Positions 9,221 through 12,206 of a DNA stretch of 26,515 nt are shown one piece after another. This DNA is from Candidatus Aenigmatarchaeota archaeon (lineage in GTDB: Archaea > Aenigmatarchaeota > Aenigmatarchaeia > QMZP01). Both the position numbers and the translations under genes were made by a program. The notes beneath the pieces were generated by a model that worked only from the letters and a program-made list of their open reading frames with translations, made no database searches and was not told where the DNA came from. The stretch is taken from positions 1 to 26,515 of the forward strand of contig JAVZYR010000004.1 in assembly GCA_038999435.1 (NCBI GenBank). Direction: 5' to 3'. How positions within the stretch are numbered: the stretch's first letter is position 1; every line of letters begins with the position of its first letter.

Positions 9221-10073
9221 CCTTGTTGTTGTGGGTTATCTTTTACATGATGTTATAGAAATAAATGGGAAAAAGTATTTTGCACTTGGTGGGCCTGCTG
9301 CATATACATCCCTTGCAGCAAAAGCACTTGGACTAAATGTAGGTATCGTCTCAAAGGTTGGGCCTGAATTTAAATATCATAGATTGATCGAAAGTATAGA
9401 TAGAGAAGGTGTATCAATCCAAAAGAGAACAACAACATTTTACAATATATACATCAATGGAAAGAGATATCAGTCAGTAGAAAATATCGGCGAGCCTATA
9501 TCTGTACAAGATTTTCCATCATCATATCTTGGTGCAAGATTTATTCACATAGGACCTGTGATATGTGAAATAGAAAAAGACCTGCTGAAATGGATAAAAC
9601 AAAAATCAAATGCAAAAATAATACTTGACCCACAAGGTTTTTTGAGAAATGAAAACAATGGATGGATAGAAAGGGTCAAATTTGATTTTAGTATGCTTGA
9701 GTATGCAGATATCATAAAGGTATCTGAAGATGATATTGATGATGAGAATCTTTTAATAAAAAAATGCAAAGAAATGGAAAAAATCTTGATCATCACAAGA
9801 GGAGAAAAAGGTTCTGAGCTGTTTTATCCATTCTATGCAAAAATCGATGCATTTCCTGCAAAGGTTGTTGACCAAACTGGTGCTGGCGATGTGTATGTTG
9901 CAGGACTTGTCTATGGCCTGCTTCAAGGCTTTGAACTTCAAAAGGCATGTTGGTTTGCATCTGCTGTCGCATCTTTTTCTGTTAGCAGACAAGGGCCCTC
10001 ACATTCTCTCGAGAGCTTCGATGCCAAGAAGGTTGAGACAGAGCTTGAGCATCTCTGCCACACAAAAAGTTAA
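9207..10073 (+). CDS. PfkB/ribokinase-family sugar kinase, possibly acting on inositol
   Basis: [19 protein letters not shown] and DQTGAGD anion-hole motif; start overlaps the ino1 stop. Substrate is inferred from context only. Confidence 0.88.
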
Positions 10074-11627
10074 TGCTAAACGGGCTTGAATATTTTCAGA
10101 TTTTAGTATTGGCACATTCTGATAAAATTCATTGAATGCATCGGAGAGGTCAAGTGCATAGTTTGCAATGTAATGTGGTCTTAGGTCTCGCTCAGCTTTG
10201 AACAGCACCCATCCAAACTCTGAAAGAAGTTTTAGAATGGCAATTTCTCTTTTATCGTTCAACACACCTACTTTAGGTTTCACATCACCTGCATTTCTCA
10301 GTACAGACCTTGCCCTTGCATATGTGTATTGCACGTATGGTGCTGTATCGCCATCAAAGCGTAATGCTTCGTCTGTCCACACACAGCCCTTTTCAGGACT
10401 GATACGTAGCATTGTCCACTTTAGCGCGCCTATACCAACAGCATCGGCAATTTTCTGCTTTTCAACCATGCTATAGCCTGGCATCTTTTCTTCTACAATT
10501 TGTGCTGCAATTGATTTTGCTTCCTTAACAAGCTCATCAACAGAAATGAAACTTCCTTTCCTTGTTGAAATTCTTCCTTCAGGTAATTTTAGATGCTCAT
10601 AGAAAACAATCTTGTATCTCTTTATCTCCTCAGGATAAATCAAACTTAACGCATTTTTAAGTTGCTCAAAATAAAGTTTTTGGTCACAACCTATCACAAC
10701 AATGTTATATCTTGCCCTTTTGAATTTGTCTGCATGGTATGCAAGGTCACGTGCAGGATATATTGTTGTGCCGTCTGATCTTGTAAGCGTAAATTGTCTT
10801 TCAATTCCCCATTTACTCATATCAAGCCATGCCCTTTTTCCATCATATCTCAAATGTCTCTTGAGTTTTGCTAAAATGTTTTTGACATCCGTCAAGTATG
10901 TACTTTCTAATCTGAAATTATCAATCTTTATTCCAATCTCACTGAGTGTTTGCCTATGTCCATCAAGACATGCATCAACGATTTTTTTGTAGCAGGCCCT
11001 GATTTTTTTATCTCCTGACTCAAAAAGTTCCATTAACCTTCTTATCTCTTCTTCGAGCATCGGATTATCTTCAATCCTTTTGTTGCCTTTAACATACATG
11101 TCTACAACCCACCAATCTGGTTTTTCTTTTCCCCTCTCTTTTCCATGTCTTAAATACTCAAATACTGCTATTGCAATCTGCCTTCCCATATCATTAACAT
11201 AAAACTCTGTTCTTGTTCTATAACCGCAAAATTTCATTATCCTTGCTATTGAATCACCAAGCACACTATTTCTGAAATGACCTATATGCAGTGGGCCATC
11301 AGGATTTGCAGATGTATGTTCAACCAACAATGTGGATTTTGGTTTGCCTTTGCAATAGTTTTGTTTTTTTCTCAAAATCTCAGATAATATTTGTGGACCT
11401 GCCTTTTCCCAATCAATAAATATATTCAGATATCCGCCTTTTGGTTCTGCCCTTTTGACAATATCTGATTTTAGCAAATTAGCAATCTCTTCTGGTTTTT
11501 TTCTAATCTTAAAACATGGCAATGCAAAATCTGCCCCTATATCCTTTGGTGGAATTTCAAGTAGAGCTACTGCTTCTTTTATTCCAATCTTCTCAAAATC
11601 TTTTGCAAGTTTTTCTCTTATGTTCAT
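9999..11627 (-). CDS. argS: Arginyl-tRNA synthetase
   Basis: VEHTSANPDGPLHIGHFRN, YVNDMGRQ, RSDGTT.Y..RDLAYH, ISTRKG, GDTAPYVQYTYARARS; C-terminal ERM. Confidence 0.97.
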   Translation of the reverse strand: MNIREKLAKDFEKIGIKEAVALLEIPPKDIGADFALPCFKIRKKPEEIANLLKSDIVKRAEPKGGYLNIFIDWEKAGPQILSEILRKKQNYCKGKPKSTLLVEHTSANPDGPLHIGHFRNSVLGDSIARIMKFCGYRTRTEFYVNDMGRQIAIAVFEYLRHGKERGKEKPDWWVVDMYVKGNKRIEDNPMLEEEIRRLMELFESGDKKIRACYKKIVDACLDGHRQTLSEIGIKIDNFRLESTYLTDVKNILAKLKRHLRYDGKRAWLDMSKWGIERQFTLTRSDGTTIYPARDLAYHADKFKRARYNIVVIGCDQKLYFEQLKNALSLIYPEEIKRYKIVFYEHLKLPEGRISTRKGSFISVDELVKEAKSIAAQIVEEKMPGYSMVEKQKIADAVGIGALKWTMLRISPEKGCVWTDEALRFDGDTAPYVQYTYARARSVLRNAGDVKPKVGVLNDKREIAILKLLSEFGWVLFKAERDLRPHYIANYALDLSDAFNEFYQNVPILKSENIQARLALTFCVAEMLKLCLNLLGIEALERM

Positions 11628-11631
11628 AGGA

Positions 11632-11979
11632 TAGCCCGGGGCGGATTTTCTTTTTAGTGCGTGGAAGCGTAGCCTCGCACGCTTTTTTGCCTGAAGCGTG
11701 CCGTGGAAGCGGTTAGCTCCCTCTTGCTCGCACGCTTCTGTTTGGGAGCAGGAGAAGCGTGCATTCGAACCGCCGTCAGCGGGTCTCTTTATCTATCATT
11801 GCTCATCAGCTCAAAGCTTTGATTTGCTCCACCACAGCTCTAAAGAGCTCTGCAGGTGGTTTCTGCTCCACCGCTCTTTGCATGAAGCGGTAGCTCTAAA
11901 GAGCGGTGATACCAAAGCCCGCTATGCTTGACCATTTAGCACACACAGCCTTTTGGCTGGTGTTCTACACCACCGGGCT
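11632..11979 (-). tRNA. tRNA-Gln(UUG) with three introns: D-loop ~15/16 (11935-11964), canonical 37/38 (11785-11911), T-loop 59/60 (11646-11763)
   Basis: Removing the three inserts gives 73 nt: AGCCCGG UG GUGU AGUGGUCAA GCAU A GCGGG CUUUGGA CCCGC UGAC GGCGG UUCGAAU CCGCC CCGGGCU A. All four stems pair; A1-U72 and G37 are typical of archaeal tRNA-Gln; no encoded CCA. Confidence 0.92.
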
Positions 11980-11990
11980 ATATTAAATAA

Positions 11991-12206
11991 TTAGGGTGAG
12001 AGATTTTTAACTACGTCTAAACCCTTTTTTGTTATTACCCAACATGTTCCAAGTGACTCAATCTTTTTTATGAATCCTTCCTGTCTCAACCTTGCAAGCG
12101 CTGTGTCAACGCCATCACTATCTCCTAAAATTTTGCTTAGCTCAGCTGTTGTTATCAATGACTGTTTTTCTAATAGCACGAGTATTTTCTGCTCTACCTC
12201 TTTCAT
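11991..12206 (-). CDS. Small winged-helix protein
   Basis: IL.LL......TTAELSK.L.....V..AL.RL..EGFI......W.ITKKG pattern; ATGA overlap with the upstream gene. Confidence 0.7.
   Translation of the reverse strand: MKEVEQKILVLLEKQSLITTAELSKILGDSDGVDTALARLRQEGFIKKIESLGTCWVITKKGLDVVKNLSP

Follow-up and report, generated by a model that had tools for sequence, protein, structure and literature searches.

The window, that is, the whole stretch of 26,515 nucleotides analysed here, comes from the genome of a hot-spring archaeon of the Aenigmatarchaeota (DPANN), which measures roughly 0.55 Mb and whose assembly is 86% complete. On the minus strand of the window, between positions 11632 and 11979, lies a tRNA-Gln(UUG) gene whose four exons are separated by three putative introns that take up 275 of its 348 nt, about four fifths of its length. 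A first-pass annotation of this DNA had placed a tRNA with three inserts of 30, 127 and 118 nt at exactly these coordinates, and the three lengths and their sum all hold; it had left the strand unstated. In window coordinates, the 5' end (A1) is position 11979 and the discriminator base (A73) is position 11632. The features of the locus are the following.

11632..11979, minus strand: tRNA-Gln(UUG) gene, 348 nt including the discriminator base A73; CCA is not encoded
11965..11979, minus strand: exon 1, 15 nt (AGCCCGGTGGTGTAG); 5' strand of the acceptor stem, U8 and G9, 5' strand of the D stem, A14 and G15; identical in the same-genus ortholog L010
11935..11964, minus strand: intron 1, 30 nt; in the D-loop between G15 and U16, with a hairpin from its second nucleotide and an A-rich 3' end; boundaries set by homology
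11912..11934, minus strand: exon 2, 23 nt (TGGTCAAGCATAGCGGGCTTTGG); rest of the D arm, 5' strand of the anticodon stem, C32 U33 U34 U35 G36 G37
11785..11911, minus strand: intron 2, 127 nt; canonical position 37/38, strict hBHBh' motif
11836..11910, minus strand: cassette A, 75 nt (nucleotides 2-76 of intron 2); a repeat also present in T-loop introns of three further tRNA genes
11811..11822, minus strand: core of intron 2; UCAAAGC, antisense (7 nt) to anticodon-loop positions 31-37, then one nucleotide and a D'-like box UUGA
11792..11808, minus strand: two C'-like boxes, UGAUGA (11803-11808) and UGAUAGA (11792-11798), upstream of the AAAG strand of the splice motif; putative role
11764..11784, minus strand: exon 3, 21 nt (ACCCGCTGACGGCGGTTCGAA); A38, 3' strand of the anticodon stem, variable region of 4 nt, 5' strand of the T stem, T-loop U54-A59
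11646..11763, minus strand: intron 3, 118 nt; T-loop position 59/60, relaxed hBH motif, two related hairpin units (cassettes B and B')
11632..11645, minus strand: exon 4, 14 nt (TCCGCCCCGGGCTA); U60, 3' strand of the T stem, 3' strand of the acceptor stem, A73
12003..12010, minus strand: TATA-like box TTAAAAAT, read from the sequence 24-31 nt upstream of the mature 5' end; putative promoter element

When the exons were joined by these coordinates, ARAGORN recognized a 73-nt tRNA-Gln(ttg) with a perfect cloverleaf, in agreement with the identity and anticodon that the first-pass annotation had assigned. The spliced stems comprise 7 bp in the acceptor, 4 bp in the D arm, 5 bp plus a 26-44 pair in the anticodon arm and 5 bp in the T arm, and the product has U8, A14, G18-G19, U33, G37, the T-loop UUCGAAU and the discriminator A73. 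Its 7-nt anticodon loop, with U33, the anticodon UUG and a purine at position 37, displays the features of an archaeal tRNA-Gln(UUG). The acceptor arms are palindromic, and a plus-strand reading was therefore considered, but the GGTTCGAATCC T arm and the UGG motif of the D-loop exist on the minus strand only. We also took as spurious a 77-aa plus-strand open reading frame (11698-11931) that falls wholly within the tRNA gene.

The gene is closely packed between its neighbours. The open reading frame of ArgRS (9999-11627, minus strand) has its start codon 5 nt beyond the tRNA discriminator base; on the other side, a 71-aa open reading frame encoding an HTH protein stops 12 nt short of the tRNA 5' end, so that the TATA-like box is located inside the end of that frame. 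Co-transcription of the tRNA and ArgRS is possible, in which case 3' processing would leave the ArgRS mRNA with almost no leader.

Standard tools overlook this gene, as the first-pass annotation had expected. ARAGORN reported no tRNA gene in the window and Rfam no match at its gathering threshold. When Rfam was searched at E values up to 10 over positions 11560-12050 (491 nt), no tRNA was found, the only matches being chance ones to mir-22, U12 and ar14.

Intron boundaries and splice motifs

The six intron boundaries are fixed by homology with the ortholog found in a genome of the same genus (L010:260-360, genome G001). The exons of the two genes are identical at 72 of 73 nt, the sole difference being a C in place of U16; the D- and T-loops of the ortholog are uninterrupted exactly at the predicted junctions, and it carries a single intron, of 27 nt, at 37/38. 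Comparison of the whole 348-nt gene with the same genome (71% complete) by BLAST gave matches in the exon regions only. A multiple-intron tRNA gene being one with at least two introns, of which at least one is non-canonical, the present gene has three, at 15/16, 37/38 and 59/60.

Only intron 2 displays the strict hBHBh' motif, made up of two 3-nt bulges, a 4-bp helix and flanking helices. Its central helix CUUU/AAAG, formed by C32-U35 and AAAG, has 4 of 4 pairs, its bulges are GG|U and AG|A, and it is flanked by a 7-bp helix on the exon side and by a 3-bp inner closing helix, AUC/GAU; this is the strict bulge-helix-bulge already described at 37/38 in the first-pass annotation, which we reproduced in its central helix, bulges and closing helix. 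The relaxed motif that it had read at 59/60 (UUCG/AGAA, AA|U) was recovered as well. In intron 3, the 5-bp T stem serves as the outer helix, the central helix UUCG/AGAA has 3 of 4 pairs and there is no inner helix; the 3' bulge is AA|U60, and the 5' bulge AA|U is directly followed by a stable hairpin. Four placements of these boundaries yield the same product, and the motif forms at 59/60 only, where it constitutes a relaxed hBH motif at a non-canonical site.

The D-loop insert is structurally the weakest of the three. At its 5' site, the 4-bp D stem is followed by A14 G15|A and then by a hairpin from intron nucleotide 2; its 3' site is an A-rich single strand with no proper bulge, and a central helix with the 3' end of the intron has 2 of 4 pairs. 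If a GUGU/GUGC helix formed instead, the cut would fall 2 nt earlier and the D-loop would come out longer. Deleting segments of the D region by brute force and submitting the products to ARAGORN -i turned out to be too permissive to fix boundaries. The first-pass annotation had considered this boundary uncertain by a few nucleotides on account of the imperfect motif: the orthologs without an intron there settle the position at 15/16, the motif remains imperfect and, on structure, the 3' cut keeps a slack of 1-2 nt. We prefer an intron of 30 nt at 15/16, since this restores the 9-nt D-loop found in orthologs; on structure alone, a 3' cut 1-2 nt earlier (an intron of 28-29 nt) would be possible.

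tRNA-Gln genes of the order

We collected the tRNA-Gln genes of the order with a spliced-alignment script, which recovered 31 distinct genes (29 UUG and 2 CUG) from loci L002-L061. The script gives intron lengths that are one short and misplaced the second intron in L057 and L059; its counts per gene are usable and its positions approximate. Across the 31 spliced genes, standard pairs occupy 641 of 651 stem cells, and compensatory double changes occur in 7 of the 21 stem pairs, which indicates that the exons evolve as a tRNA and that the inserts vary freely. The A1-U72 pair is found in 31 of 31 genes. Position 16 is variable, and U is its commonest base.

The intron sets of these genes differ. 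Nine have an anticodon-loop and a T-loop intron, four a D-arm and an anticodon-loop intron, 16 an anticodon-loop intron only and one has none; three introns are found in the present gene only, and its D-loop intron is absent from the other 28 UUG genes compared. Judged by these sequences, the 37/38 intron is the ancestral one. As a separate observation, seven Gln(UUG) genes of relatives (L034, L036, L037, L040, L051, L053 and L061) have C33 instead of the nearly universal U33 (loop CCUUGG), and the initiator tRNA of the present genome (G000:C26:3232-3637) has an apparent C33 too (loop CCCAUAA).

tRNA genes across the genome

We surveyed the genome with a structural scan anchored on the pairing of the T stem and the acceptor stem, which does not detect genes interrupted at 53/54 or truncated at contig ends. 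The scan returned 38 candidates, of which 33 were kept; the five dropped comprised a chimera of two genes, an alternative 5' end and three candidates with implausible stems. ARAGORN, by comparison, finds 10 tRNA genes in this genome, and Rfam 10 over its cut-off. Genes of the present kind explain the apparent lack of many tRNAs in tiny DPANN genomes.

A T-loop intron at 59/60, 11-306 nt long, is present in 25 of the 33 genes, and exceeds 100 nt in 17 of the 33. All 25 introns share a common 59/60 geometry, with at least 3 of 4 pairs in the central helix and the 3' end NGARAA|U60, a splice geometry that the gene-finding scan does not use. The first-pass annotation had called two introns over 100 nt in one tRNA unusual. 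This stands when measured against the literature, and Gln(UUG) is alone in this respect among the 33 scanned genes; it does not stand for the lineage, where the 17 long T-loop introns make such lengths routine. By inspection, the hairpin starts at intron nucleotide 1 or 2 in all seven D-loop 15/16 introns of the genome, and by eye, six other genes and the tRNA-Gln(CUG) paralog have a 15/16 insert in which a helix is followed by two exon nucleotides and one intron nucleotide and then by a hairpin. Three introns also occur in Lys(UUU) (C11:11978-12421) and Arg(UCU) (C14:3961-4258), so that the genome holds at least three such genes including Gln(UUG); brute-force deletion was used only to confirm that a third deletion is needed in these two.

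We then asked how far the genome depends on this gene, the first-pass annotation having proposed a check for another tRNA-Gln(UUG). BLAST with the ortholog, the structural scan and a pattern search found no second one in the 86%-complete assembly. The pattern search revealed a second Gln gene, tRNA-Gln(CUG) (G000:C1:73522-73642, minus strand, 121 nt), with introns of 26-27 nt at D-loop 15/16 and of 21 nt at 53/54 and none at 37/38. Its D-loop intron shares the site and not the sequence of that of the UUG gene, and the same-genus genome G001 has an intron-less tRNA-Gln(CUG) gene (L029). In 221 long open frames, CAA accounts for 1802 of 3149 Gln codons (57%), and tRNA-Gln(CUG) cannot read CAA.

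Composition of the long introns

Introns 2 and 3 contain sequences that are dispersed in the genome. Cassette A recurs with 97-100% identity in the T-loop introns of tRNA-Ser(GGA) on contig C1, tRNA-Arg(UCG) on contig C11 and a truncated tRNA-Gly(UCC) on contig C16, one further copy being found at the opposite end of C16. The first 71 nt of intron 3 match, at 100% identity, a stretch of the tRNA-Ala(GGC) T-loop intron (C3:7761-7831), and the initiator tRNA, Lys, Leu(UAA), Thr(CGU) and Ser(CGA) have T-loop introns with units related to intron 3. Another cassette of this genome is present in D-loop as well as T-loop introns. For intron 1, BLAST found no other copy in the genome. In two relatives (L005 of G024 and L004 of G015), cassette A is found directly after a complete tRNA 3' end and, elsewhere, with no tRNA exon within 45 nt upstream, which implies that the cassettes are not confined to introns.

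It is conceivable, if on balance doubtful, that the long introns 2 and 3 are recent composites from an active family of hairpin cassettes that would settle at endonuclease splice sites regardless of their position in the tRNA. That cassette A occupies an anticodon-loop intron in this gene and T-loop introns in three others, and that another cassette is shared by D- and T-loop introns, suggests insertion at splice sites of any position, and the same-genus Gln gene, whose 27-nt intron lacks cassette A and which has no cassette at all, suggests that the composites are recent. If this reading is true, intron gain and growth would be in progress in this lineage, perhaps through a reversed action of the splicing endonuclease and ligase, and cassettes would be accumulating next to an old intron, itself retained for its role in guiding wobble-base methylation.

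The cassettes are also where the assembly breaks. The contig ends C16:1-250 and C16:13700-13963 both stop within the cassette-A repeat, and one of them cuts tRNA-Gly(UCC) in its T-loop intron. At the present locus, we examined four DNA runs of one study. The short-k contigs obtained independently from them end within both long introns, and the lengths of 127 and 118 nt are therefore as assembled, along a path that runs through repeats. Within the four runs, we found no contig joint that skips an intron and no intron-less variant. In run X1, unique pieces at flank-like depth (11300-11722, 11743-11865 and 11879-12300) cover all exons and the six junctions; the piece 11743-11865 has a depth of 10.7 versus 12.4-13 for the flanks.

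Splicing endonuclease and ligase

The only tRNA_int_endo match of the genome lies at the start of contig C7. This EndA fragment of 174 residues aligns with residues 219-387 of PDB entry 4fz2 (E 4e-55), and it retains the catalytic Tyr/His/Lys as well as the D-S-E dimer loop. That structure is the three-unit epsilon2 EndA of ARMAN-2 (PMC3488258), an enzyme described as cleaving, in vitro, a strict motif at 37/38 as well as an intron at 59/60 with the relaxed hBH motif (PMC3239211, PMC3488258). The gene is cut by the contig end: a tblastn search of the genome with the full-length EndA of five relatives returned the C7 fragment only and not the N-terminal ~225 residues, a part that would include the specificity loop (K161 in ARMAN-2). 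In one relative, labelled Aenigmatarchaeota, the full-length EndA (394 aa) aligns over residues 12-387 of 4fz2; both this protein and the same-genus EndA fragment have the lysine of the specificity loop. By homology, the EndA of this genome is of the broad-specificity epsilon2 (ARMAN-2) type, with its C-terminal part assembled, which supplies the typing that the first-pass annotation had recommended. The RtcB ligase is encoded at C15:747-2054. Both a broad-specificity endonuclease, as a C-terminal fragment with its triad, and an RNA ligase are thus encoded.

Homologues of the three-unit epsilon2-type EndA were seen in 63 loci (L062-L124), 51-88% identical to the fragment and many of them labelled Aenigmatarchaeota, those labelled Micrarchaeota being 51-58% identical. 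In a 2018 paper, Micrarchaeum and its relative Mancarchaeum are named as the only known carriers of the epsilon2 type (PMC5829648).

Proposed splicing and alternatives

In the pathway that we propose, a precursor of ~350 nt would be transcribed from the minus strand and cut at six sites by the epsilon2-type endonuclease. The enzyme would recognize the strict bulge-helix-bulge at 37/38, the relaxed helix-bulge-helix (hBH) at T-loop 59/60 and, at D-loop 15/16, a helix-bulge-hairpin (HBh'-like) in which the 4-bp D stem acts as the central helix. RtcB would join the four exons into the 73-nt tRNA, and CCA would be added afterwards. We infer from sequence that all three introns are spliced, and that the locus is, very probably, the functional and sole tRNA-Gln(UUG) gene of the genome, its introns being removed by these steps.

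Alternatively, the locus could be the remnant of a tRNA-Gln gene that insertions of repeat cassettes have destroyed and that no longer yields a tRNA. Introns 2 and 3 are indeed largely dispersed repeats, and the splice motif of the D-loop insert is poor. However, the four exons are intact, differing from the same-genus ortholog at the variable position 16 only, and the inserts are placed exactly where splice motifs can form; by the same logic, moreover, 25 of the 33 tRNA genes of this genome would be dead. Since no second UUG gene was found in the assembly and the CUG tRNA cannot read CAA, the codon used for 57% of glutamines, we regard a pseudogene as scarcely credible. It is also unlikely, with somewhat more in its favour, that the gene is real and introns 2 and 3 owe their sizes to assembly errors, tandem cassette units having been collapsed or expanded. 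The breaks of the short-k contigs of all four runs in both introns, a summed depth over the cassettes of ~10x the flanks, and the tandem cassette A in the tRNA-Gly of C16, both ends of which stop in that repeat, would fit such an error, but the exon order and the six junctions are covered by the unique pieces of run X1 at flank-like depth, and an artefact of this kind would alter the lengths only, not the number or place of the introns.

The D-loop insert might also not be an EndA intron, and instead be kept as an extra hairpin in the mature tRNA or removed by another route. Its 3' site lacks a bulge flanked by two helices and it has no sequence relatives; yet 30 nt between G15 and G18-G19 would break the interaction of the D-loop with the T-loop if the hairpin were kept, and six other genes and the CUG paralog share the 15/16 site and its architecture. 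Relaxed motifs without one bulge are, besides, described as accepted substrates of broad-specificity EndAs (PMC3488258, PMC3239211). We therefore consider this improbable to a high degree, and retain EndA-dependent removal of all three introns as the preferred reading.

Relation to known systems

The structure of a three-intron tRNA gene is already known in archaea, and this lineage has it unusually often. According to reviews, an archaeal tRNA gene contains at most three introns (PMC3239211, PMC4033280); the present gene equals that maximum and, as a single gene, leaves existing knowledge unchanged. A literature search covering titles and abstract openings found no publication on multi-intron tRNAs in Aenigmatarchaeota.

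Close parallels are found in the Thermoproteales, where, according to the cited accounts (PMC4033280, PMC3239211), up to three protein-spliced introns per gene occupy canonical and non-canonical sites, introns are shared among tRNAs and the endonuclease has a broad specificity; similar introns across different tRNAs were read there as intron transposition (Sugahara 2008; Fujishima 2010; PMC4033280, PMC3239211). Compared with the Thermoproteales as portrayed there, the present organism is a DPANN Aenigmatarchaeota and not a crenarchaeon, its endonuclease is epsilon2 and not (alpha-beta)2, its introns are tandem composites of hairpin cassettes (118-127 nt in this gene, up to 306 nt in the genome) and 25 of 33 genes are interrupted at T-loop 59/60. 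With ARMAN-2, in which 56% of the tRNA genes are reported to be disrupted, it shares the 59/60 position, the relaxed hBH motif and the family of the three-unit endonuclease (174 residues, E 4e-55, catalytic triad). The ARMAN-2 intron whose cleavage is reported measures 13 nt, whereas the intron here consists of 118 nt of repeats, and the cited accounts describe no three-intron gene for ARMAN-2. A eukaryotic nuclear tRNA gene likewise has three introns, with one intron in each of the three arms that are interrupted here; unlike in the present gene, they are short, and the endonuclease differs.

The same-genus relative, with one 27-nt intron, and the present gene, with three totalling 275 nt, form a before/after pair that could be used for studying the gain and enlargement of archaeal tRNA introns. 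The gene could also serve to test an epsilon2 endonuclease on very long repeat-built introns and on weak D-loop motifs.

A putative methylation guide in intron 2

The last ~50 nt of intron 2 correspond to the short intron of the relatives. We looked there for the antisense element followed by exactly one nucleotide and YUGA, and found it, with at most one mismatch allowed, in 20 of the 27 UUG orthologs that could be parsed out of 29, two being unparsable; among the other seven, five show 2-3 mismatches and two were without a regex match. The element occurs in neither of the two CUG genes. GAUGA or GUGA is found at the equivalent place of the C'-like boxes in orthologs. In the seven orthologs with C33, the opposite nucleotide is, as read, G in four, is kept as A in two, hence uncompensated, and is unclear in one.

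A box C/D guide has a box C (RUGAUGA) and a box D (CUGA) that can fold into a kink-turn, and the fifth paired nucleotide upstream of box D or D' marks the target. Applied to the spacing of the antisense element, the single nucleotide and YUGA, the fifth-nucleotide rule predicts U34 as the target. Fibrillarin and Nop5 are encoded in the genome. The conserved core thus likely guides the 2'-O-methylation of U34 before splicing, within the limits of a complementarity of 7 nt, a UUGA in place of CUGA and one pair of boxes instead of two.

An intron with such a role is known from the euryarchaeal pre-tRNA-Trp, where it is described as a box C/D guide for Cm34 and Um39 (PMC6313347). Both are canonical 37/38 introns with an antisense to their own anticodon region beside C/D-type boxes, and in both position 34 is targeted, by prediction in the present case. 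Unlike the pre-tRNA-Trp guide as described, the Gln core has one D'-like and one C'-like box with a 7-nt complementarity and UUGA, its methylation is predicted, and it sits behind an inserted 75-nt cassette. By eye, analogous antisense elements were also noted in the introns of Lys(UUU), Glu(UUC), Arg(UCU) and Leu(UAA) of the present genome; the spacing differs in Lys(UUU), whose antisense would point to C32 rather than U34.
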